This document shows positions 23,944 to 64,000 of a stretch of DNA of 64,000 nt, in pieces. The position numbers and the translations under genes are program-made. This DNA comes from an uncultured Acidobacteriota bacterium (GTDB taxonomy: Bacteria; Acidobacteriota; Vicinamibacteria; Fen-336). The stretch covers positions 1,122,746 to 1,186,745 of the forward strand of contig CAVPGH010000001.1 in NCBI GenBank assembly GCA_963703985.1, read 5' to 3'. Below the pieces are notes generated by a model. The model had not been told where the DNA came from, did no database searches, and saw only the letters and a list, made by a program, of their open reading frames with translations. The first letter of the stretch is position 1. Each line of letters opens with the position of its first letter.

Positions 23944-24694
23944 CGTGGTCGCGCTCGTCGCCTTCCTGGGGCCGGCGGCGGTTCGCGCCGCCGACGTCGG
24001 CAACTGGCCCATCCACGACCGCACCCGTCCCGCCCCGAAGGCGGTCGATCCGGGCACCGCCAGCACGCAGGAGCAGCCAGGCAAGCCGCCCTCGGACGCG
24101 ACCGTGCTCTTCGGCGGGAAGGACCTCTCGCTCTGGAAGTCCAAGAAGGACGGCGGCCCCGCCAAGTGGAAGGTGGAGAACGGCTACATGGAAGTCGTGA
24201 AGGGAACGGGCTACATCGAAACGGCCCAGGGCTTCGGCGACTGCCAGCTCCACGTGGAGTGGATGGCCCCTTCGCCGCCGGTGGGCCAGGACCAGGACCG
24301 CGGCAACAGCGGCGTCTTCCTGATGGGCCAGTACGAGGTGCAGGTGGTCGACTCCTATGAGAGCGCGACCTATCCCGACGGCCAGGCCGCGGCCCTCTAC
24401 GGTCAGTACCCGCCCCTCGTCAACGCCTCGCGTCCGCCCGGCCAGTGGCAGACCTACGACATCGTCTTCCACGCGCCGCGCTTCGACGCCGAGGGGAAGG
24501 TGACGCGGCCGGCGCGGGTGACCGTCCTGCACAACGGGGTGCTCGTGCAGGACGACGCGGAGCTCACCGGCCCTACGGCGCACAAGGCGCGCCCGCCCTA
24601 CACGGCCCACCCCGCGAAGCTGCCCCTCGCCCTGCAGGACCACGACCACCCGGTCCGCTATCGGAACATCTGGGTCCGGGAGCTGGCGGAGTAG
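23944..24694 (+). CDS. DUF1080 (3-keto-disaccharide-hydrolase-like, laminin-G jellyroll) protein
   Basis: Putative GTG start giving signal peptide VVALVAFLGPAAVRAADV; WKVENGYMEVVKGTGYIETAQGFGDCQLHVEW...NSGVFLMGQYEVQV...LPLALQDHDHPVRYRNIWVRELAE is characteristic of DUF1080. It is in frame with the upstream small-subunit ORF without an intervening stop. Confidence 0.65.
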
Positions 24695-41418: not shown

Positions 41419-41483
41419 GCCCGCTTCGGCCGACGGGCGGGACCGAGCCGTCCCGCCCGTCGTGGTTTGCCCCCTCGCTACCG

Positions 41484-41580
41484 CTCGCCCTCCAGGACCA
41501 CGACCACCCGGTCCGCTATCGGAACATCCGGGTCCGGGAGATGGCGGGTGGGAGCGGCAGGTACCGTAACGCGGGAGGGC
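41484..41580 (+). repeat. orphan copy of the 3' end (+ ~30 nt downstream) of the DUF1080 gene at 24627-24723
   Basis: About 97 nt at roughly 87% identity to 24627-24723, including the coding tail LALQDHDHPVRYRNI(W/R)VRE and the downstream non-coding sequence; stop codon lost (GAGTAG to GAGATG); no upstream DUF1080 body. Confidence 0.55.
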
Positions 41581-42895: not shown

Positions 42896-44203
42896 CTACA
42901 GATAGCTGAGCCAACAGCGAGAGGCCTGGTGGCTTGTCTTGTAGGCGGCGAACCACCGGCAGCAGGGATACAAGGCGAGCACAACCCCGAGCCACACGAG
43001 GTACACCGTCGACAGGCTGAGACCGTAGCCCTTGAGCGCAGCCGCGTCGTTGACGCCGCCCGCGAGGATCATGTCACTCACACGGTAGCCGGTCGCGCTC
43101 GCCGCGATGGTGGCCACGACGTGAATCAGGAGGATGTGAGCCATGTAGAAGAACAGGGGGACCTTTCCGAAGGTCACCATCCAGCGGGTCAGGCGGCCCA
43201 AGGGCTTTTCCGCGAGGGCCAGACCGACGAGTGCCGGTCCCAGCGTCATCAACGTGTACAGGAGCGATGGCGGATACTTGGTCACGTTGAGGAACGCGAG
43301 GAGGCTGAAGAGATCCGACTCCTGTGGCGACCACGGCGCGGGATCCCCGTAAAGATTTCCCGCCCGGACCAGGACGAACAGTCCCGTCGCGAGGAGGCCG
43401 GCCAGCAGCAAGCCCCGTCTTCTCGTCTCGGGTCGGCACTGCCCGCCGTACCATGGCCCGCAGCAATAGCCAAGGGCCATGATCCCGATCCAAGGCAGCA
43501 GCGGATAGTGCACGCAAACCACGGTCCAGCCCAGCTCGAAGCGTCCCATCTCGTGTAGGACGGCCCAAAGGAACGCGGACACGCCGCCGCCCGGAACGTG
43601 CACTCGATCGAGGAGGTTGTGACCGGCGACCAGCGCGACGGCGACGAGGAGCAGGAGTTGCCTGTCGAGGTGAATCAGCGCGGACATCACGATCATCCCG
43701 ACGCCGATCGCCCAGATCACCTGCAGGTTGAAGTATGGGTAGGCCGGGTTGAATGTCCTGCACAGCGACACCGCAAACAGCTCGAGGCATGCGAGCCAGG
43801 CGCCCCGGGTGGCCAGAAAGAGGGAGAGCTCCTTCCGGCTCTTCCGTGAGCCGTGCAAGTAGGCGGCCAGACCGGCGAGAAAGACGAATACCGGCGCACA
43901 GTAGTGCGTGATCCACCGGGTAAGGAAGAGAGCGGCCGTCGTGCGCGCCAAGTCAGTGGGGTCGTATAAGAAGGCATCGGCGTGGAAGTAGTCGCGGACG
44001 TGATCCAGGGTCATGAGGACTATGACCGCGCCCCGCAGCAGGTCGATGGAGTCGATGCGCACCCTCCTCGTGAGCGCGTCGCCGTGACTCGGTGCGATGC
44101 GTTCATGTGTCGATGCCAAGGCCGCAACAACATCGCCTTCGAGATGGGCGGGGGTGGAGATCAGTGCCAGGCGCCGGCGGTGGTCATCCTGCTCGCGAAG
44201 CAT
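42896..44203 (-). CDS. DUF1624/acyltransferase-3-like polytopic membrane protein
   Basis: RIDSIDLLRGAVIVLMTLDHVRDYF N-terminal motif of HGSNAT-like DUF1624 proteins; about 10 TM helices. Start taken as ATG 44203 (MLREQ...), which leaves the AT-rich LysR-box intergenic region free; the track start 44719 is not credible. Confidence 0.6.
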   Translation of the reverse strand: MLREQDDHRRRLALISTPAHLEGDVVAALASTHERIAPSHGDALTRRVRIDSIDLLRGAVIVLMTLDHVRDYFHADAFLYDPTDLARTTAALFLTRWITHYCAPVFVFLAGLAAYLHGSRKSRKELSLFLATRGAWLACLELFAVSLCRTFNPAYPYFNLQVIWAIGVGMIVMSALIHLDRQLLLLVAVALVAGHNLLDRVHVPGGGVSAFLWAVLHEMGRFELGWTVVCVHYPLLPWIGIMALGYCCGPWYGGQCRPETRRRGLLLAGLLATGLFVLVRAGNLYGDPAPWSPQESDLFSLLAFLNVTKYPPSLLYTLMTLGPALVGLALAEKPLGRLTRWMVTFGKVPLFFYMAHILLIHVVATIAASATGYRVSDMILAGGVNDAAALKGYGLSLSTVYLVWLGVVLALYPCCRWFAAYKTSHQASRCWLSYL

Positions 44204-44249
44204 GCCCCATGGTGAGGTCCCGCCCAACGATAAGTCAAACAGCTTGTTG

Positions 44250-44264
44250 TTATCAATATGATAA
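44250..44264. promoter_or_regulatory. LysR-type operator palindrome in divergent intergenic region
   Basis: TTATCAATATGATAA is a perfect inverted repeat fitting T-N11-A, lying 13 nt upstream of the LysR ATG and between divergently transcribed genes; locally AT-rich. Confidence 0.45.
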
Positions 44265-44276
44265 GCTGTGGTGATC

Positions 44277-45206
44277 ATGGAACTACGCCATCTGAAGGGG
44301 TTCCTCGCCGTGGCTCGGCACGGCCACTTCACGCGGGCCGCCGGACAGCTGGGCCTGGCCCAGCCGGCGCTCTCGCAGCAGATTGCCCAGCTCGAGGAGG
44401 AGCTGGGGGTGGCGGTCTTCGAGCGCTCCCGGCGCGGGGCGCGGCTGACCGCGGCCGGCCAGTCGCTCGTCCGGCGGGCGGAGCGGATCTTCCTGGAGGT
44501 CGACGAGGCCCGCCGCGAGGCAGGGCGATATGCGAGCCTCGACCACGGACGCGTGGTGATCGGAACGATCTCGTCGATCGCGGTCCTGCGTCTGCCCGCG
44601 CTGTTGGCCCGGTTCCGGGCCCGCCACCCGGGCGTCGAAGTCGAGGTCCGCGAGGGCCACGTTGCGCGACTTCTGGAGCTGCTCGGATCGGGGGCGCTCG
44701 ATCTGGCGGTGGTCCACACGGGCTCTCTGAGAACGGGGCGGGTCGCACCGCCACCCGGGCGGGGGGGAGCGCAGATCTCGTGGGAGACGGCCTATTCCGA
44801 GGAGCTGGTGCTGATCGTGGGCCGCCGCCATCGACTGGCGCATGCGCGTGAGGTTCGATGGGTCGACCTGAGCGATGAAGCGTTCGTCATGTTCCATGAG
44901 GGCTCGATGCTGCGAGGCATCGTCGGGGCCGCCGCGGCGGTCGCGGGCTTCAGCGCGCGCATCGCGCTCGAGGTGGACGAGACCGCGACCGTGCGCTCGT
45001 TCGTCGCGGCCGGCCTCGGCGTGTCGGTGCTGCCGCGCTCCATGGCGGCGTCACCCGGTCCGCCGGTCGACCTCGTGCGCCTGGCCGTCCCCCGGCTCTT
45101 TCGGACCGTTCGCCTGGGCTGGCGGCGACAGGCAGACGCCAACCCCGCGGCGGTCGCCCTGGTCGACCTCCTCCGTTCGCAATTGGTCCGGCTTGGTCAA
45201 CCGTGA
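44277..45206 (+). CDS. LysR-family transcriptional regulator
   Basis: MELRHLKGFLAVARHGHFTRAAGQLGLAQPALSQQIAQLEEELGV HTH; LysR substrate-binding domain. Confidence 0.8.
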   Translation: MELRHLKGFLAVARHGHFTRAAGQLGLAQPALSQQIAQLEEELGVAVFERSRRGARLTAAGQSLVRRAERIFLEVDEARREAGRYASLDHGRVVIGTISSIAVLRLPALLARFRARHPGVEVEVREGHVARLLELLGSGALDLAVVHTGSLRTGRVAPPPGRGGAQISWETAYSEELVLIVGRRHRLAHAREVRWVDLSDEAFVMFHEGSMLRGIVGAAAAVAGFSARIALEVDETATVRSFVAAGLGVSVLPRSMAASPGPPVDLVRLAVPRLFRTVRLGWRRQADANPAAVALVDLLRSQLVRLGQP

Positions 45207-45264
45207 CTGGCGCAGCGGTCGACCCGCCCGACGGCGGCGGGAAGTCATTGAAGGGCCTGGTAGG

Positions 45265-45479
45265 GGTTGGCTCCTCAGGTAGGATTCGAACCGAGAATCA
45301 GCCTCCGACGCCAGCCGACTCGGACCCACGCGATCCTGACCCGGATGGCACTTAGCTCACTTCGCCTTCGGTCAGGCTTGACCCGATTCTCACCGAGAAG
45401 AGGGACAGTTGAGGGACAGTCAGGCCCGCGGCATTTCCCGAACGCTCAAGACTTCGTGCTCCGTCGCCTGCGCGAAGCC
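45265..45479. repeat. direct repeat copy 1 (about 215 bp; first 154 bp near-identical to copy 2) with tRNA-like T-loop/CCA motif on the minus strand
   Basis: 45265-45418 differs from 50015-50159 at 2 positions; minus strand reads ...GGTTCGAATCCTACCTGAGGAGCCA; the tail 45419-45479 is more diverged. Confidence 0.6.
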
Positions 45480-45551
45480 CCTCCTCGGGCGCGTCCTGCG
45501 TCAGAACCACGCGCCGGTACATTCGATGGGGACTCGCACCAGGGGCCTCTC

Positions 45552-48446
45552 TCAGCGACCTGGCCAGACGACTCCCGCCAGCAGCACCACGTCCGCCTCG
45601 CCCTCGCCCAGTGCGGCAAAGATGGATCGGCCGTCGGACGACCACGACAGGCGCCGCGCGATGAAAGTCGCCCGCCGGCCAAAATCGGTGAGCGGGCGAA
45701 ACGTGCCGTCGGCGGTCGACACGGCCCAGATGTTGGACGTTCCGTGGTCGACGAGCGACAGCGCGAGCCACTTGCCATCCGGTGAGATCACAGGCTGCAT
45801 CATCAGCCAGATCGGGACGCGGCTGGCGGGAATGTGGGCTAGCGTCCGGGGGGAGCCGTCTTCGGGACTCGCCGTGCGAATCTCGTAGTCGGCGAGGCCA
45901 GATCCTGCGAGCAACTCGACCAACCAGTACAAGGCCGATCCGTCGCGGCTGATCGCCGGGCGGGTCGCCGTGTCCGTCCGCACGACAACCGGCTGTCCGC
46001 CGTCGATCGCCACCTTCGAAACGGCCGCCCGACGTGGGTCCTCGGAGTAATACACCCAGCGACTGTCGGGGGACCAATCCGCCCAACCGGCAAGGAGCCT
46101 GAGATTGCGCAGGCCACTGCCATCCGGGCTCACCAGCCAGTAGCCGTTCTGGCCTTTCGGCGCCTCACGGCTGGAGGCGAAGGCGATGTGCTGCCCGTCA
46201 GGCGACCAGACGGGAACGCCCACGGAGATTTCCGGATCCCGCTCGTAGGTGATCTGGCGGCTCTCCCCCGTTTCGAGCTTCGTCACCCAGATGTTCGCGT
46301 GACCGCCGCTGTCGGACACGTACGCGACTTCCTTGTCCCCCGGGCCCACCGTCGGTGTGCGCACCTGTCCCGTTTGCCGCGTGACACGCTCGCCACGACG
46401 GACGTTCTCGACGCCGCCGAAGTCCACTGGATACCGCCAGATGTCCGACCGCAACTGAAGCCGCGTCGCCACCAACGTTCCCGTCCGATCGACGTCTGGA
46501 TAGAGATACGAGACTTCCCCAAACGTAACCTGGCGCCAAGCGCCGCCTCTTGACGGGACCGTCCACAGATTGAACGAGGGCAGGTAGTAGAGCGTGCTTC
46601 CCCGCGACGAGCTCATGACGATCCCCGATCCGTCGGGCAACCAAGCGAAGCCGCTCATCCGATTGTTGGCTTGCGTGATCCCCCGGGGCTCGCCGCCGCT
46701 CGCCGGCACGACGAACACATCATCGTCCAGGCTCATCCGGTTTCTTTGGTACGCGATCAACGTATCGTCCGGCGACCATCGAGGTGACACGTAGGAATAG
46801 CCAGCTGCGAGATGGACGATGACCTGGGCATTGGTGCCGTCACGATCGGCCGTCACCAGCTCGAGTCGTCCGTCGGCCGATCGAACAAAGGCGAGCCGCC
46901 TGCCGTCGTGGCTGACATCACCATCGGCGAGGCTGTCCACGATGCGGTGTGGAGCGCCGCCAAGGGCTGAGATCTCCCAGAGCGTCCCCGTGAGCCCGCC
47001 ACCGGCCGGCGGCGAAAAGTAGATGAGCGAGCTCGAATCGGGAAGCCAGCGCGGACGCAGATGCTCGCTCGCATCGCGCGTGAGCTGCAGCGGCGCGCCG
47101 CCCGTGATCAGCTTCATCCAGATCTGACGCAGCCCGCCCTCGCCCGCGGTAAACGCCACGGACCTCCCATCGGGAGAGATCGCGGGGTACTCCTCGAGGC
47201 CCGGGAAGTCGGTCAGCCGATCGATACGAACGGCGGTTGCCGGCGCGGACGCGGTGCGGGCACCCACGAAGTAACCCGCGGCCGCCATCGTGCCAAGCGC
47301 GACGATCATCAGGGCGGGAATCATCCGCCGTCTGCCTGGCTGCGGAACGGTCGGCCGCGCGTCGTCTGCGTCGGCATCCGATTCGGCGAGCCACTGCAGC
47401 TCGCGCAGGAGATCGCGTGCGGTCTGCCAGCGATCGTCGGGATCCTTGGCTAGACAGGTTTGAACGATGCGCTGGAGCGCAGGCGTTGCCAGTGGTTGGA
47501 ACTGCGAGAGCGGTGGAGGCTCGCTCCTCAGGATCGCCGCGATGAGCCCGGCCCGGCTGGGCGCCTCGAAGGCCTTGCGGCCCGTCACCATCTCGTAGGC
47601 CACCAGCCCGAAGGCGAAGATGTCGGTCCTCGCGTCGACGGGCCTGCCTTCGAGCTGCTCCGGGGCCATGTACTGCGGTGTCCCGACGATGAACCCCTCG
47701 CCGGTGAGCGACGCGGCAGCGGCGGTGGGCGCTCCTTCCGAGAACGCACCGGCAAGGAGCTTGGCGATCCCGAAATCGAGCAGCTTCGCGCCCTTTTTCG
47801 TCAGCATGACGTTGCCCGGCTTCAGATCGCGGTGCACGATTCCGGCCAGGTGTGCGTCCGCGAGGGCGTCCGCAATCTGACTCGCGTAGCGCAGGGCCTC
47901 GTCCAGAGGTAGTGGGCCCCGAGTCAGCCGATCGGCCACGTTCTCGCCCTCCAGATACTCCATGACCAGGAAGGTGAGGTCGTCCTGCTCGCCCACGTCA
48001 TAGAGCGGGCAGATGTGGGGATGGCTCAGCTTCGAGATGGCGCGAGCCTCCCGCTCGAAACGCTTGCGCTGCGTCGGGTCTCCGGATACAGCCGGCGGCA
48101 GGACTTTGATCGCGACGATCCGATCGAGCCGCGTGTCGCGGGCCTTGTAGATCTCGCCCATGCCGCCCCCGCCGACGGGAGCCAGGATCTGGTACGGGCC
48201 GAGCAAACGGCTAGGCGAGAGCGCCGGGGGGGGCGGCTCGGCTTCGTCTATACGGGCCGGCTCGGATAGGAAGTCGCCGGCCTCACGCCCGGCGGCGAGG
48301 AGTGCCTCGACCTCACGGCGGAGGACGTCGTCGTCGCCGCAGGCCTTCTGCAGATAGGCCTCGCGTGCCTCGGCCGGCCGCTCGAGTGTGTCCTGGAAGA
48401 GCTCCGTTATGCGTTGCCAACGCTCGGGCGTCATGGGTGGGACCAA
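45552..48446 (-). CDS. Ser/Thr protein kinase with N-terminal sigma-factor-associated domain and C-terminal TolB-like beta-propeller
   Basis: N-terminus MTPERWQRITELFQDTLERPAEAREAYL; kinase motifs HRDLKPGNVML, DFGIAK; TM; repeated PDG propeller blades; 4 nt downstream of the ECF sigma gene. Confidence 0.8.
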   Translation of the reverse strand: MVPPMTPERWQRITELFQDTLERPAEAREAYLQKACGDDDVLRREVEALLAAGREAGDFLSEPARIDEAEPPPPALSPSRLLGPYQILAPVGGGGMGEIYKARDTRLDRIVAIKVLPPAVSGDPTQRKRFEREARAISKLSHPHICPLYDVGEQDDLTFLVMEYLEGENVADRLTRGPLPLDEALRYASQIADALADAHLAGIVHRDLKPGNVMLTKKGAKLLDFGIAKLLAGAFSEGAPTAAAASLTGEGFIVGTPQYMAPEQLEGRPVDARTDIFAFGLVAYEMVTGRKAFEAPSRAGLIAAILRSEPPPLSQFQPLATPALQRIVQTCLAKDPDDRWQTARDLLRELQWLAESDADADDARPTVPQPGRRRMIPALMIVALGTMAAAGYFVGARTASAPATAVRIDRLTDFPGLEEYPAISPDGRSVAFTAGEGGLRQIWMKLITGGAPLQLTRDASEHLRPRWLPDSSSLIYFSPPAGGGLTGTLWEISALGGAPHRIVDSLADGDVSHDGRRLAFVRSADGRLELVTADRDGTNAQVIVHLAAGYSYVSPRWSPDDTLIAYQRNRMSLDDDVFVVPASGGEPRGITQANNRMSGFAWLPDGSGIVMSSSRGSTLYYLPSFNLWTVPSRGGAWRQVTFGEVSYLYPDVDRTGTLVATRLQLRSDIWRYPVDFGGVENVRRGERVTRQTGQVRTPTVGPGDKEVAYVSDSGGHANIWVTKLETGESRQITYERDPEISVGVPVWSPDGQHIAFASSREAPKGQNGYWLVSPDGSGLRNLRLLAGWADWSPDSRWVYYSEDPRRAAVSKVAIDGGQPVVVRTDTATRPAISRDGSALYWLVELLAGSGLADYEIRTASPEDGSPRTLAHIPASRVPIWLMMQPVISPDGKWLALSLVDHGTSNIWAVSTADGTFRPLTDFGRRATFIARRLSWSSDGRSIFAALGEGEADVVLLAGVVWPGR

Positions 48447-48450
48447 TGGG

Positions 48451-49038
48451 TCAATTCTGCCTCAGACGGTCGAATAGCCAGGCTCGGGCCACCGTCCAGT
48501 CGCGCTTCACGGTGGGGACCGACACTCCCACCACCTCGGCCACCTCCTCCAGCTTCAGGCCGCCGAAATATCGCAGTTCGACGACTCGACCCTGCCGGGC
48601 GTTGAGGGCGGACAGCTCGCAGAGTGCCTCGTCGAGCAGGACGAGATCGACCTCGGGCTCCGCGACCGATTGGACGGCCTCGTTCAATGTCACGTGAATG
48701 GCGTCGCGCTTGGCCGCACGCCGCCGCCGAGCGTGATCGACGAGGATCCGGCGCATCAGGTTGGAGGCCACGCCGAAGAAGTGGGACCTGCTGCGCCAGT
48801 GGCCCCGGAGGCCGACGAGCCTCAAATAGGCCTCGTGGACCAGCGCCGTGGGTTGAAGGGTATGCCCGGGTCGCTCTCTGCGAAGGTAGGCTCCGGCGCG
48901 GCGGCGCAACTCATCGTAAACCAGGGGGATCAGCCGGCGTCCGGCCTCTTCGTCCCCCGCATTCCAGGCCTGGAGCAGGGCGGTTACCGACTCCGGCGGC
49001 TGAAACTTCACCGTGGGCTCGGCCCCATTGTGAGCCAT
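48451..49038 (-). CDS. ECF sigma factor (STK-associated ECF subgroup)
   Basis: Sigma-70 regions 2 and 4 (LVHEAYLRL; LEEVAEVVGVSVPTVKRDW); N-terminal extension TALLQAWNAGDEEAGRRLIPLVYDELRR typical of ECFs paired with protein kinases. Confidence 0.8.
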   Translation of the reverse strand: MAHNGAEPTVKFQPPESVTALLQAWNAGDEEAGRRLIPLVYDELRRRAGAYLRRERPGHTLQPTALVHEAYLRLVGLRGHWRSRSHFFGVASNLMRRILVDHARRRRAAKRDAIHVTLNEAVQSVAEPEVDLVLLDEALCELSALNARQGRVVELRYFGGLKLEEVAEVVGVSVPTVKRDWTVARAWLFDRLRQN

Positions 49039-49102
49039 TTCGCCTCCTCATTGCGCTTCCGGGATGGCGGACCTTCAAAAGGGCCGTCTTGGGAGGTGTC
49101 TC

Positions 49103-50023
49103 ATGGGACGCAATAAGCGCGTGACGCTGGCGGCGGCCGGTCTGGTTGCTCTCGGCCTCACGGCCGGGGCGCACGAGGGGTTACTACGGTTCTCGCCGAT
49201 CGACTTCCCGGGCGCCGCCGCTACGACCGCCTTCGGCATCAACGAACGCGGCGAGGTGGTGGGCAGTTATCGCGATTCGTCGAACCGGACCCATGGATTC
49301 GTGCGGGTCGGGGAGCTGCTCCGCTCGATCGATTACCCCGGCGCAGCTTTCACCGATGCGCGGGGCATCAGCCCGGCGGGCGAAGTGGTCGGAGCGTACC
49401 GACTGCCCGGAGAGCCCCCGGTGAACTTCCATGGGTATCTGTTGACGAGGGGCGGAGAGTTCCGCCGCATCGATTTCCCCGATCACACCAACACCATCCC
49501 GCAGCGGATCGGCCGCGACGGAACCATTCTCGGTTGCTATCACGACGCTGACACCATGGACACCATGCACGGGATCGTCATCGCAGACGACGTGTTCACT
49601 GGTTTCGAGATGCCGGCGAGCATGCACAACGGGGCTACCCCCAACGGGAAGACCATCGTCGGGCTTTACACCGAAATGGGCACGGGGCGAGGGCGCGCGT
49701 ATCTGCTCGATCGTGGCGACTTCGTCCCCTTCGATTTCCCGGGCAGCGTCTTCACGGCTGGGTGGGACATCAACCCTGCGCGACGTGCGGTCGGCGTCTA
49801 CCAGGACGCGGGCGGGCGGTTCCATGGCTTCGTCGTGGACCGACACTGGAACTTCGATACCATCGATTATCCAAGCGCGACCGGCACTCGCGTGTTCGGG
49901 ATCAACTCCCGCGGCGAGTTGGTGGGCAATTACGTCGACGCGGCCAACAAGACGCACGGCTTCCTGGCCCGCCGGCAGGACGAGGGCGAAAACGACGAGG
50001 AGGAGGGTTGGCTCCTCAGGTAG
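49103..50023 (+). CDS. secreted HAF-family extracellular repeat protein
   Basis: GGGAGG RBS; signal peptide MGRNKRVTLAAAGLVALGLTAGAHE; five repeats of the form GIN.RGEVVG.Y......HGF (the HAF pattern). The last codons and the stop lie inside repeat copy 2. Confidence 0.6.
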   Translation: MGRNKRVTLAAAGLVALGLTAGAHEGLLRFSPIDFPGAAATTAFGINERGEVVGSYRDSSNRTHGFVRVGELLRSIDYPGAAFTDARGISPAGEVVGAYRLPGEPPVNFHGYLLTRGGEFRRIDFPDHTNTIPQRIGRDGTILGCYHDADTMDTMHGIVIADDVFTGFEMPASMHNGATPNGKTIVGLYTEMGTGRGRAYLLDRGDFVPFDFPGSVFTAGWDINPARRAVGVYQDAGGRFHGFVVDRHWNFDTIDYPSATGTRVFGINSRGELVGNYVDAANKTHGFLARRQDEGENDEEEGWLLR

Positions 50024-50219
50024 GATTCGAACCGAGAATCAGCCTCCGACGCCAGCCGACTCAAACCCACGCGATCCTGACCCGGATGGCACTTAGCTCA
50101 CTTCGCCTTCGGTCAGGCTTGACCCGATTCTCACCGAGAAGAGGGACAGTTGAGGGACACTCGTCAGGCGCGTGCCATCTCCCTGACGCTCAGAACCTCG
50201 TGCTCCGTCGCTTCGCGGA
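50015..50219. repeat. direct repeat copy 2
   Basis: See copy 1; 50015-50159 is near-identical to 45265-45418, with a 3-nt insertion then a diverged tail. Confidence 0.6.
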
Positions 50220-50283
50220 CGGCTCCGGCGAAGGCTTCTCGGCGCACCTCCCCAGGCCCTTCCGGAATGAATCGCCCGACTCG

Positions 50284-50322
50284 TCACGCATTTCTTGCTA
50301 CACGCATTTCTTGCTATTGACG
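50284..50322 (+). promoter_or_regulatory. tandem 16-bp direct repeat abutting a -35-like TTGACG
   Basis: CACGCATTTCTTGCTA occurs twice (50285-50316), followed by TTGACG, N17, TAGCCT. A second palindrome TGCAATCGATGCATTGCA lies at 50540-50557, just upstream of the AAGGAG RBS of the 50577 gene. Confidence 0.3.
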
Positions 50323-50576
50323 TGGGCCGCGGCGCGGCGTAGCCTGCGCGCACCTACCCTGAGAACCATGATGGCAGCCGCCTTTCCTCGTCCCCTCGGC
50401 CGCCACGGGCGTCCTCGGTCCGCCACCGAGCCGGGGGCGACTCCGGAGGTGTTCGTGCACCTGGATAGCCGCGGACGAGCGCGTTGGGCCGAGCACGCGG
50501 GCCGTCGGTGTGGTTGTGTGGTCTCTCGGCGTCGAACCATGCAATCGATGCATTGCAGCGGAAAAGGAGATGGTCC

Positions 50577-53500
50577 ATGGGCACATCTGATTCTTTCTTC
50601 CGAGCCCTACTAATCGGCAACTTACTGCTCACGATGCCCTTATCACAAGGGCAAGCCCGACCCGCGCAGGCGGGCACGACGTCCATGCCGGTCCCCCGCT
50701 TGGGAGCCCTGCCGCACACCCTGTCTCTGCCCGCGGAAGAGGTTTCCATCCAATACCCGGACGAGTGGTCGCTAGCTCACCCGACAGCCAATTCCTGGGT
50801 GGTTCTGAACGTCCCTGCCGACCAGCTGGATAAGGTCGGACCCACGGTCCGAGTGCAAATCGGCTACCTGGAAAGAAGCGACCACGCCGGCGCCGTCCGA
50901 GAGCTCGCCGAGATCGCGAATGAATATGCAACGCGATCGAGGTTCCTGACCATCGGGGGCTGGCCCGCCCTCGAGCGGGTACAACTCCTCGATAGACCCC
51001 AGCCGAGCGAGGCGCCCCGCTACGCTGACCCGCGGATGGTTCAGATCACGACGGCGGTGGCGGCGGGCAGCCTGCTGATTCGCCTCGAGGGCAGACTTCC
51101 CTCCGATGCCGACCGGCCGCTCCGACGCCTCGTGCTCGACATTGGGCGCAGCCTCACATTCAAATCCGAGGGCGATGCGGCAGACGTCGAGCAGGAGGTC
51201 AAACGGCTCCAGCGCTTGCTGAGGGGCGCCGAACCTCCGCCAGACGGTGTTTCCATCCAAGATCGGGCGACCCCGCTCTCCGCCGCTGACACGTTCTTCG
51301 CCGACGCCGGCGCCAACCCGATCCTGACATTGACGCAGGTCCCATTTGGAACCAACGGTGAACTCGAGATCGCCGCCTCCAATGACGGCGCCGACATCGT
51401 CATGGTCAAGCAAAGCTCCTGGCTCACCTCGAATGATGGCGGGCAGACGTTTCCGTTCAGCGGAAGCCTTCCCGTTGGGGATGGCGACAGCGCGATCGCC
51501 TTCGGAGCCAGTGGGAGCTTCTATCACGCGGCCCTCGGCTGCTTCGGGACGAGCTGTGCTGCTGTCTGTCCGGCCAGCAGCAACTGCGCGGAAATCGCCG
51601 CGTCCGCGACCAACGGTCGGACGTTCGGCGCGCTGGTCAACGCCGCGGTGTGTCCGAACTCGGGGGGCGGAGCTTGCAGCATCGACCAGGAACACATTGC
51701 CTCCGACCGTTTCAACACCACGGCAGGCGGCCAGGACCGTGTCTATATGGCCTTTCGACAGTGCCTGGGTGGGTGCGGATCGGATTCCCGTATCACCTGC
51801 TCCCTGGACAGCGGCGCCACCTGGGCGCCGCAGTTCTCGCTGGAGGTTGGTGCCGACTTCCCCCGCGTCGCGGTGGGGAGTGACGGGTCTTTCTATGTAG
51901 TGTATCGGCTCGGTGGCGACTTCCGGATCGACAAGTACAACGCCTGCAGCACCAATGCGGCGGTGATGACGAGGGCCGCCGGCGGATTCCCGAAGACGGT
52001 GAGCGCATTCACCACCGTTGCCGGCTGCGAGGTGGCCAATGGGTTTCCCGGTCTCGACCGGTGCAATGACGGGAACCTCCTCTCGAGTCCAACCGTGGCC
52101 GTGGACGACACGAACGCGAACCATGTCTATGTGGCGTGGGCGACCAACACGGCCACGGGCCCCAACCCGGGACTGGGCAACGAAAACGTCATGGTCGCGG
52201 ATTCCACCGATGGTGGCGTGACCTGGGGGGCCGCCGGGCACACCCCCGTCGTCGTCAACAGCACGGGTACCAACGGGCGCCGCATCATGCCGTGGGTCTG
52301 CACTTCCGCTGGAAAGGCCTTCGTCACCTGGTACGACCGCCGAAGCGCCACCGCGGCGAACAACGACTTGCAGGACTACTTCGCGGCCAGCGCCGGGCTG
52401 TCCGGTGGCAACCTCGTCGCCAGCAATGACGAGTTCAGGATTTCGACGGCCACGGATGCAACGTGCACGACCTGGCCGAGAGGACCTCGCAGCACCTTCG
52501 ACTCGGAGAATTGCTCGGTTCAGCCACAAGACGCAGGCAACTGCAGCGTGACGACGGCCACACGCTGCGATTTTAGCGGCGACGGTACGCTATGCCCAAG
52601 GGACAGAGACCTGCCAAACGGGAAATGGCGCCGTCAAGTATGGCGACTATAACGGCAACTATTGCGTCCTCGGACGTCTCTATACGGTGTTCGCATCAAG
52701 CGCTGGTCAGCTCACGACGGGCGCACCCCGGAACTTCTACCAGTCTTTCGTGGTGACCTCGACGACGACAACGGCTGTATACAGTGGCGCGACTACCGGC
52801 GACTATCATGACGACGTCACTCTTTCCGGCAAGCTCACCCTCAGTGGCACACCCATAGGGATCGCCGGCCAGACCCTCAGCTTTACCATCGGCAGCCCAG
52901 AGCTGCAGCGACACCACCGTCGCCTCCGGCGTGGCGTCGTGCACCCTCAACCTCAATCAGGTGCCCGGTCCCTACACGGTGACCGCCAGCTTTGCCGGCA
53001 GCGGCCTCTACGAAGCCAGCAGCAGTGCGGCGACGCCGTTCATCATCACGAAAGAGGAGACCACGCTGAGCTACACGGGCCCCACCGTCATCGCCAATGG
53101 CCTCCCCCTGACCGTGACCGGCGTCTTGCTGGAGGATGGCGTGGTCCCCATCGCCGGCCGGACCGTGTCGTTTACGCTGGGCACGGGCGGCAGCGCGCAG
53201 ACTTGCAGTGGCGTGACGGACGCGACGGGCAACGCCTCCTGCACGATCCCGGTGGTCAACCAGCCTCTCGGCGCGAACACCGTCGGCGTCAGTTTCCTTG
53301 GCGACGCCTTCTACTTGCCGTCCTCCGCGAGCGCCAACGTCATCTCGTTCGCGTTCCCCGCCCGGGGTGATTTCGTGGTCGGGGACCAGACGGCGACCGG
53401 CGCCGTGGAGTTCTGGGGCGCCGATTGGGCCAATGTGAACCTGCTGAGCGGCGGTGCCGCTCCCGATGCCTTCAAGGGTTTCGCCGCTAGCATCAGCACG

Positions 53501-63855: not shown

Positions 63856-64000
63856 CCCCGAATCCGCCAGAGAGTACAGGCGGACGATCGGCGGGTCAAA
63901 GCCGGGAATCGGTCAGAGGTACAGGTTGCAGCTGGGCCAGGAACGTCCTGGTCGGATTGTCGCTGGGCGGTCGCTGGTGTTAACCTCCACCGGCAAAGCG

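Follow-up and report, generated by a model that had tools for sequence, protein, structure and literature searches.

Direct repeats around a sigma factor, kinase and HAF-repeat module in a Vicinamibacteria genome: probable scars of mobilizable elements inserting into tRNA-Asn

What are two nearly identical direct repeats, each closing with the 3' end of a tRNA, doing on either side of a module of regulatory genes? The question is raised by a stretch of 64,000 nucleotides (nt) from an uncultured bacterium of the Vicinamibacteria lineage Fen-336 (Acidobacteriota; assembly GCA_963703985.1, contig CAVPGH010000001.1, positions 1,122,746 to 1,186,745), the whole of which is here called the window, in which the repeats bracket genes for an extracytoplasmic function (ECF) sigma factor, a Ser/Thr kinase and a HAF-repeat protein. 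We conclude, with a probability of about 0.82, that the repeats are far-end attachment (att) sites of integrative mobilizable elements (IMEs) whose target is the tRNA-Asn(GTT) gene of Vicinamibacteria. The evidence comes from relatives of the repeat in other contigs, among them one complete element and a pair of empty and occupied sites; these loci are cited by handles such as L035.

The repeat pair and its tRNA-Asn end

The two copies (window 45264-45421 and 50005-50162) align over 158 nt with 3 mismatches (at 45322, 45323 and the terminal 45419), and after a 3-nt indel the similarity falls to 82% (9 mismatches in 49 nt; 45419-45467 versus 50163-50211). Beyond this extension ungapped identity is at the level of chance (matches at 25 of 100 positions in one flank and at 34 of 100 in the opposite flank). 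The 35-nt repeat end has two exact occurrences in the window versus none expected from shuffled sequence, and a profile of the family-wide unit likewise recovers only two copies in the 64 kb. The minus strand of both copies closes with the 29-mer GGTTCGAATCCTACCTGAGGAGCCAACCC, so that each reads ...GATTCTCGGTTCGAATCCTACCTGAGGAGCCA. The first-pass annotation had reported near-identical direct repeats followed by decay, a T-loop and CCA end on the minus strand for which no D arm, anticodon arm or T-stem could be folded, and a stop codon of the HAF gene inside copy 2. These descriptions are accurate: ARAGORN calls no tRNA anywhere in the 64 kb, two of the five positions of the T-stem are always unpaired, and the TAG of the HAF gene lies at 50021-50023.

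A search by exact junction pattern returned two contigs of Vicinamibacteria metagenome-assembled genomes and 34 soil-metagenome contigs, and the repeat proved to be a conserved unit of ~160 nt present in these 36 other contigs. Two of them (L002 and L035) also have an intact tRNA-Asn(GTT) gene, as called by ARAGORN, which lies upstream of the unit and reads in its direction; the displaced fragment follows 1.5 kb (L002) and 9.2 kb (L035) downstream of the tRNA gene. The 29-mer represents the last 29 nt of tRNA-Asn(GTT) with its trailer and is identical to both window copies at 29 of 29 positions; it comprises half of the T-stem, the T-loop, the 3' strand of the acceptor, CCA and the additional letters ACCC. 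To the left of this block the unit reads ...GATTCTC and the tRNA ...GGGTTGTA. Identity to the tRNA therefore begins inside the T-stem, which is why no T-stem folds in the repeats.

In the tRNA sense the aligned copies start sharply with GACTGTCCCTCAACTGTCCC and end with ...GAGCCAACCCC. Outside the search pattern, conservation is highest in the start motif, which is made up of two 10-bp direct repeats and has nearly invariant columns. This far end of the element arm (P arm) carries the nearly invariant TGTCCCTCAACTGTCCC, which recurs in the other arm (P' arm) 45-55 nt beyond tRNA-Asn; the motif was found next to tRNA-Asn in L035, L012, L038, L039, L040 and L044, and the P' arm just beyond the tRNA-Asn of L035 holds it as aTGTCCCTCAACTGTCCC. 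Judging from the sequence, the tandem TGTCCC motifs at the arm end are probably arm-type binding sites of an integrase.

Both window copies are sites of one type, in which ~130 nt of element arm are joined to a displaced tRNA core (Table 1). The arm of copy 1 ends in two tandem 10-bp motifs (45402-45421, GGGACAGTTGAGGGACAGTC on the plus strand). Its core is followed by a P' remnant that terminates 22 nt away from the stop codon of the LysR gene (45206): after the CCA the minus strand has ACCCCTACCAGGCCCTTCAATGACTTCCCGCCGCCGTCGG, compared with ACCCCTACTTTAGCGGTCAACGACTTGCCGCCGCCGTCGG after the tRNA-Asn of L035, and residues 460-484 of the integrase match 45230-45304 at 80% (tblastn). This tail fragment of 25 residues is the sole integrase trace in the window. 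The 82% extension corresponds to the last 16 codons of a decayed DUF4926 gene, ending in ...EHEVLSVREM(P/A)RA and a stop, of which copy 1 retains a further fragment up to 45522. Read in the tRNA sense (minus strand), the order is therefore DUF4926 remnant, arm and core of copy 2, the HAF gene (antisense), ECF sigma factor and kinase, and then DUF4926 remnant, arm and core of copy 1, 40 nt of P' arm and the LysR gene (antisense). Because integration duplicates only the ~29-nt core, and the attL of an element would be the intact tRNA, the two copies are not the attL and attR of a single event. The earlier suggestion of an att pair at a tRNA 3' end was thus right as to the kind of site, the gene being tRNA-Asn(GTT) with a tyrosine integrase in relatives, and wrong as to the pairing.

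A complete element, its integrase and an empty site

The type of element to which the unit belongs can be seen in L035, a contig of 13 kb, where an element of 9.2 kb has ends that share 28 identical nt as direct repeats. It is an IME, in which attL consists of the intact tRNA and the integrase gene, attR consists of the displaced tRNA 3' fragment and element DNA, and the genes between them include a MobA/VirD2 relaxase and a NikA-like protein. For its tyrosine integrase 683 homologues were recovered at E <= 1e-30, many of them 418-419 amino acids (aa) long and 80-91% identical, and the few homologues with a source name are from Vicinamibacteria. In all ten of the integrase loci that were fetched (L038-L047; ~6 independent, encoding six proteins) the 3' end of the integrase gene overlaps tRNA-Asn(GTT) on the opposite strand. 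Most of these loci have an excisionase-like gene of the HTH_17 family beside the integrase gene, L042 also has relaxase and NikA genes, and the chromosomal side is conserved, with genes for an Arf-like GTPase, Roadblock, RecR, YbaB and DnaX.

An empty site is provided by L002, where a metallophosphoesterase flank comes directly after tRNA-Asn; in L013 this flank, with 94.5% identity over 1373 nt, comes after the unit instead. This match indicates that in the genome of L013 an element lies between the tRNA and the flank, the unit forming its right junction. In relatives of the window repeats, then, the displaced fragment agrees with the tRNA gene in sequence and orientation, the integrase gene lies at the intact tRNA, and an empty site can be set beside an occupied one.

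The integrase also accounts for part of the unit itself. On the antisense strand of most copies the integrase frame crosses the core, reading GSSGRIRT-ENQP(P/S)TP(A/D)DS..DP....T, and stops at a conserved CTAAGT. Entropy by codon position is 8.4/9.9/16.2 before this stop and 14.8/13.7/13.4 after it, and the 1-nt indels of diverse members lie past it. Such third-position variability supports real coding, and antisense coding would explain why the core-proximal half does not vary in length. Once the element is integrated, the frame closes within the tRNA as ...GSSGRIRT-YNPPVNSRMLYP followed by a stop, and the called integrase genes in L038-L047 likewise end there; in the circle it would read ...GSSGRIRT-ENQPPTPADS...T and a stop. 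As the frame crosses the attachment site of the element (attP), the C-terminal end of the protein differs between integrated and excised forms. The exchanged tail comprises 12-20 residues and lies ~60 residues past the catalytic tyrosine, leaving the catalytic domain untouched. The crossover is predicted to fall within GGTTCGAATCC.

It is possible to combine these observations into a mechanism. Recombination by a tyrosine integrase would take place between the attP of the element and the T-loop part of the tRNA gene; the element would bring its own copy of the last 29 nt of the tRNA, by which the gene is rebuilt at one end (attL, beside the integrase gene), and the displaced tRNA 3' fragment would be joined to ~130 nt of element arm at the other end, giving the unit. 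Repeated integration into the regenerated tRNA, together with loss of the integrase and mobilization genes of older elements, would then produce direct arrays of units. The segment of 4.7 kb in the window may accordingly be cargo left behind when an element decayed, or chromosomal DNA caught between two scars, since it lies between two units of which copy 1 has 40 nt of the other arm and copy 2 abuts the HAF gene.

Several features of the unit and its surroundings were recorded in addition. The 3' end of a DUF4926 gene precedes about half of the copies in other contigs, usually paired with DUF6883, and the DUF6883-DUF4926 pair is intact at this position in L001, L004, L017, L026, L028 and others. 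Toxin-antitoxin-like genes adjoin the unit in many contigs, either this pair, a PIN toxin with a small partner, or a HigA-type antitoxin, and a HigA cassette of ~0.9-1.7 kb is flanked by two units in L001, L004, L017 and L035. The units at L007:1635-1736 and L015:2959-3108 keep GGTTCGAATCCTACC and then have CGAAGAA(T/A)ACCGGG in place of TGAGGAGCCAACCC, variant ends that could reflect crossover in the T-loop with a different target; in L007 the arm motif is also inverted and fused to the 3' half of the unit. Within the window, a 15-bp tandem direct repeat (ACGCATTTCTTGCTA, two copies, 50287-50322) with TTGACG directly after it lies between copy 2 and the open reading frame (ORF) of 722 aa, and could be an operator or promoter. 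A 71-nt repeat with 93% identity (24619-24689 and 41477-41547, 16.9 kb apart) probably reflects a stretch conserved between two paralogues.

Table 1. Coordinates of the repeats, their parts and neighbouring genes in the window and in related loci
Feature	Location	Strand	Remark
LysR regulator	window 44268-45206	+	
P' arm remnant, ~40 nt including the ACCC common with the core	window 45228-45267	-	directly after copy 1 core; 45228-45263 without the ACCC
Copy 1 core, displaced tRNA-Asn 3' fragment	window 45264-45292	-	29/29 nt versus intact tRNA-Asn(GTT) of L002 and L035
Copy 1 including extension	window 45264-45467		repeat
Fossil integrase 3' end, excised (attP) form	window 45269-45355	+	GSSGRIRTENQPPTPADSDPRDPDPDGT; stop TAG 45353-45355
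Copy 1 element arm (P arm)	window 45293-45421	-	conserved in 29 aligned copies from other contigs
Decayed DUF4926 remnant at copy 1	window 45420-45522	-	tblastn with intact L001 DUF4926 protein
Ser/Thr kinase with PD40 beta-propeller	window 45552-48446	-	Pfam, NCBIfam
ECF sigma factor	window 48451-49038	-	Pfam, NCBIfam
HAF-repeat protein	window 49064-50023	+	Pfam, NCBIfam
Copy 2 core	window 50005-50033	-	same 29-mer; abuts HAF gene
Copy 2 including extension	window 50005-50211		repeat
Integrase-tail frame corresponding to that of copy 1	window 50010-50096	+	
Copy 2 element arm	window 50034-50162	-	putative arm-type motifs 50143-50160
Decayed DUF4926 remnant at copy 2	window 50164-50229	-	tblastn, residues 86-106 at 81%
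Unannotated ORF, 722 aa	window 50484-52652	+	
tRNA-Asn	L035:2067-2141	+	
Tyrosine integrase ORF	L035:2078-3556	-	3' end runs into tRNA
MobA/VirD2 relaxase	L035:4457-5530	-	
NikA-like protein	L035:5598-5948	-	
Ser/Thr kinase with PD40	L035:7806-10508	+	
PIN toxin	L035:10505-10933	-	
Unit	L035:11235-11395	+	tRNA orientation
Kinase/ECF examples	window 45552-49038; L038:20470-21260; contig of P0144; L035:7806-10508		kinase in L035
Toxin-antitoxin-like examples	L001:3427-4004; L035:10505-11247; L001:2688-3212 and equivalents		

Arrays, the bracketed module and other explanations

The window is not alone in having more than one unit. Two or three units or core fragments, spaced 0.8-4.7 kb from one another, form direct arrays in L001, L004, L017, L018, L031, L016, L032, L009 and L035, and copies in one contig always have the same orientation. 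Between array units lie only small gene sets without an integrase, encoding a HigA-type antitoxin, a CAAX protease with a gene of unknown function, an M20 peptidase or a beta-propeller protein. Remnants of the P' arm are graded: in L012 and L021 the arm persists with the last 75-95 codons of an integrase pseudogene, L020, L024 and L028 retain ~100 nt in which the motif is degraded, and 40 nt are left at window copy 1 and none at copy 2. The order in L012 and L021, where unit, core and P' arm are followed by the truncated integrase, agrees better with a tandem junction than with a free circle. Taken together, arrays and graded remnants give a picture of repeated integration into a regenerated tRNA gene followed by erosion of the older elements. 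In one array a core-only fragment without an arm (CGAATCCTACCTGAGGAGCCAACCCC, L018:2667-2705) lies between two full units that are 4.7 kb apart, and is a third kind of scar.

The module between the window copies is at most trapped or leftover DNA. Neither Pfam and NCBIfam profiles nor tblastn detected integrase, excisionase, relaxase or mobilization genes between the copies, and the HAF gene is complete, its homologues having 295-304 aa and the same acidic tail. An orthologue that lacks a unit (L049) is homologous up to 50005, and its stop codon aligns with a GAG at 50003-50005 in the window, so that the HAF frame runs through five extra codons (GWLLR) to the TAG in the core. Truncation of HAF by the insertion was accordingly rejected, as full-length homologues share the tail and only the stop is shifted by five codons. 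At this junction (49997-50020) there is a 6-bp inverted repeat with GGTTGG at its centre, one half being provided by the acidic-tail codons GAGGAGGAG and the other by the CTCCTC that comes from the acceptor. The HAF-ECF-kinase triad is also present in one other contig (that of P0144), HAF alone is found in further Vicinamibacteria contigs, and the HAF orthologue loci with readable DNA (L048 and L049, which amount to one redundant locus) have no unit; because of these occurrences the module is regarded as a common gene set of Vicinamibacteria that here lies between two scars. The first-pass annotation had identified the bracketed genes correctly. Its suggestion that they move as a cassette gains no support, since the triad and HAF occur elsewhere and the second arm is lacking. 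In these genomes pairs of ECF sigma factor and Ser/Thr kinase genes, with sensor parts of the PD40 or TPR type, are found repeatedly, some within islands and others not. The kinase of the window was also considered as a near copy of the cargo kinase of L035 and rejected, for the two share their architecture at 32% identity.

A number of observations weigh against reading the repeats as far-end sites of tRNA-Asn elements. The window itself contains no intact tRNA, full-length integrase, excisionase or relaxase, and the parental tRNA-Asn, if present, lies more than 14 kb away, beyond position 64000. The 34 metagenome loci were found by an exact 22-nt pattern, and the conservation of that stretch is partly due to the search. 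Both ends of a complete element are seen only in L035 (duplicate L008), as the fetched integrase loci end before the far end. Copy 2 has no P' remnant, and its core abuts HAF exactly at the native stop codon of that gene. Finally, the window pair is 96.6% identical over columns outside the search pattern, compared with 60-72% for other array pairs and 84% for the nearest foreign unit, and mismatches are distributed unevenly between the unit (2 of 158) and the adjoining DUF4926 remnants (9 of 49; Fisher p = 5e-5); such a mosaic is not accounted for by two independent integrations and neutral decay alone.

The last of these points leads to an explanation that also derives the units from att sites, and that we hold to be possible, if somewhat doubtful: the near-identity in the window would stem from a recent local event, either gene conversion of old scars or duplication of a scar. 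An identity of 96.6-98% where other arrays have far less would fit such an event, as would the abrupt drop from 98% to 82% at the end of the arm motif, beside the 3-nt indel, and the similarly truncated DUF4926 remnant on both copies. On the other hand, two elements of the same lineage could share a near-identical integrase and attP and yet differ in adjacent accessory genes, so that the mosaic fits unit-confined gene conversion as well as two integrations by one lineage with a near-identical recombination module. It is rather unlikely, although it deserves mention, that the units are not dead and that the integrase of tRNA-Asn-linked arrays still excises and reshuffles gene sets, including ECF sigma factor and kinase modules, in which case the exchange of its tail could bias integration versus excision, as reported for phage Mx8. 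Slightly less likely still is a working cassette system, loosely similar to integrons or cis-mobilizable elements, in which the integrase captures, excises and shuffles sets such as the ECF/kinase/HAF genes: arrays with one to three genes between units recur, the cores and arm motifs of both window units are intact, a kinase with PD40 is also cargo of L035, and cis-mobilization of decayed tandem elements has been documented elsewhere (PMC5704250), but no circular junction was seen, the segment has no P' arm at its copy 2 end, within-array pairs are divergent, HAF orthologues occur without units, and the graded decay of P' arm and integrase points to passive erosion. An integron attC site was rejected, since neither strand has a significant single-strand fold and the integrase lies at a tRNA gene with a relaxase; from NCBIfam there is only a sub-threshold XerA/integron-integrase match (17 bits versus a cut-off of 220).

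Explanations that do without att sites fare worse. Many soil-metagenome copies, often several per contig and mostly in contigs with no nearby tRNA or integrase, might suggest a tRNA-derived dispersed repeat that spreads by itself without site-specific integration, like a short interspersed nuclear element or a miniature inverted-repeat transposable element, but the missing tRNA says little because most of these contigs are only 1-5 kb long. Such a repeat is very improbable in view of the single orientation per contig, the remnants of P' arm and integrase after many units, and the position of the unit both at the end of the integrase-bearing L035 element and at the place of the tRNA-Asn 3' end in the empty and occupied pair; moreover, terminal inverted repeats are lacking, as scanning 44000-51500 for repeats showed no inverted pair at the ends of either copy. 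The first-pass annotation had reserved the term generic dispersed repeat for many copies without a link to tRNA genes or integrases, and the relatives do show tRNA-Asn and a tyrosine integrase. Hardly credible is a gene for a small structured RNA, present in two copies, whose 3' end mimics the T-arm, acceptor and CCA of a tRNA. Its attractions are the length of ~160 nt, constant despite many substitutions, the sharp 5' boundary, and the T-loop and CCA at the 3' end. However, besides the negative ARAGORN result, Rfam gives no hit at the gathering score and one chance match (E = 3.5) under relaxed settings, the fold energy is no better than that of shuffles (z = +1.7 for the minus and -0.1 for the plus strand), the consensus structure contains almost no pairs (-4.4 kcal/mol, none compensatory), and the candidate hairpins and the T-stem score as in shuffled controls, the two unpaired T-stem positions holding across 27 sequences. 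Antisense coding already explains the constant length of the core-proximal half, and the conserved 5' block recurs in the P' arm by the integrase gene, which is what one expects of a binding site on DNA.

Some narrower candidates were set aside as well. A tRNA or tmRNA gene was rejected because ARAGORN and Rfam are both negative, the latter with no tRNA or tmRNA match to the window repeats even at E <= 10. Coding on the tRNA-sense strand, considered for an open frame with swaps of Arg codons, has no start codon and is interrupted by 1-nt indels among members, and its periodicity is that of the antisense integrase frame. Long-range pairing of GAGAATC with GATTCTC was rejected since the 5' partner varies freely and the 3' partner is fixed. 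For a phage origin, exact-pattern scans of viral contigs were empty and an integrase scan gave only one relative, at 26%.

Far-end sites of tRNA-Asn elements thus remain the preferred reading, and the unit of ~160 nt together with its integrase family of hundreds of homologues offers a signature for mapping horizontally acquired DNA in Vicinamibacteria, which are abundant in soil and mostly uncultured. Paralogue-rich signalling genes, such as a kinase with PD40 or an ECF sigma factor with a kinase, can sit in or next to islands, which bears on the growth of regulatory repertoires in soil Acidobacteria. The window repeats may also permit loss of the 4.7-kb module by homologous recombination.

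Comparison with known systems

As a class, scars of tRNA-targeting elements are ordinary; the element family itself appears undescribed, and a search, not exhaustive, of the literature on mobile elements of Acidobacteriota and on tandem accretion gave no description of it. The asn tRNA genes of enterobacteria are targets of ICEKp1 and of the high-pathogenicity island of Yersinia. ICEKp1 is named in the title of a further study (PMC13023037), and tandem islands and crossover sites in the T-stem region in general are treated in the Islander catalogue of tRNA-gene islands (PMC4383910). Like tRNA-gene islands and IMEs, the tRNA-Asn elements have an integrase gene adjoining the intact tRNA, a displaced 3' fragment at the far end in the same orientation, and a predicted crossover in the T-stem or T-loop; there are tandem arrays, and, in the pattern of IMEs, a relaxase and NikA occur without a conjugation apparatus. 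They differ from known tRNA islands in the phylum of their host (Acidobacteriota, Vicinamibacteria) and in the long conserved arm on the displaced fragment, by which the family can be found by sequence, whereas the window has only scars, with no integrase or tRNA.

Tandem accretion, decay and the formation of cis-mobilizable elements (CIMEs) have been reviewed for ICESt1-type elements (PMC5704250), and arrays of displaced ends of the tmRNA gene (ssrA) with tandem islands are known from Dehalococcoides (PMC3146451). Both resemble the present arrays in having direct att repeats downstream of a tRNA or tmRNA gene, with many intervals that lack an integration module, indicating repeated integration and decay. 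A CIME keeps attL and attR; the window segment does lack integration and transfer genes, but it is bounded by two P-arm-plus-core sites and, with no P' arm at the copy 2 end, is not a complete element bounded by attL and attR. In the Dehalococcoides islands, unlike the tRNA-Asn elements, the recombinase is of the serine type and the repeat is 20 bp long.

The closest parallel for the integrase is found in phage Mx8 of Myxococcus xanthus and in archaeal integrases of the SSV type, in which attP lies inside the integrase gene (PMC6070905, PMC4383910, PMC7253208), just as the integrase frame of the tRNA-Asn elements runs across attP. Unlike in these systems, the tail that is exchanged is short and the catalytic domain is untouched, and the element is an IME rather than a phage.

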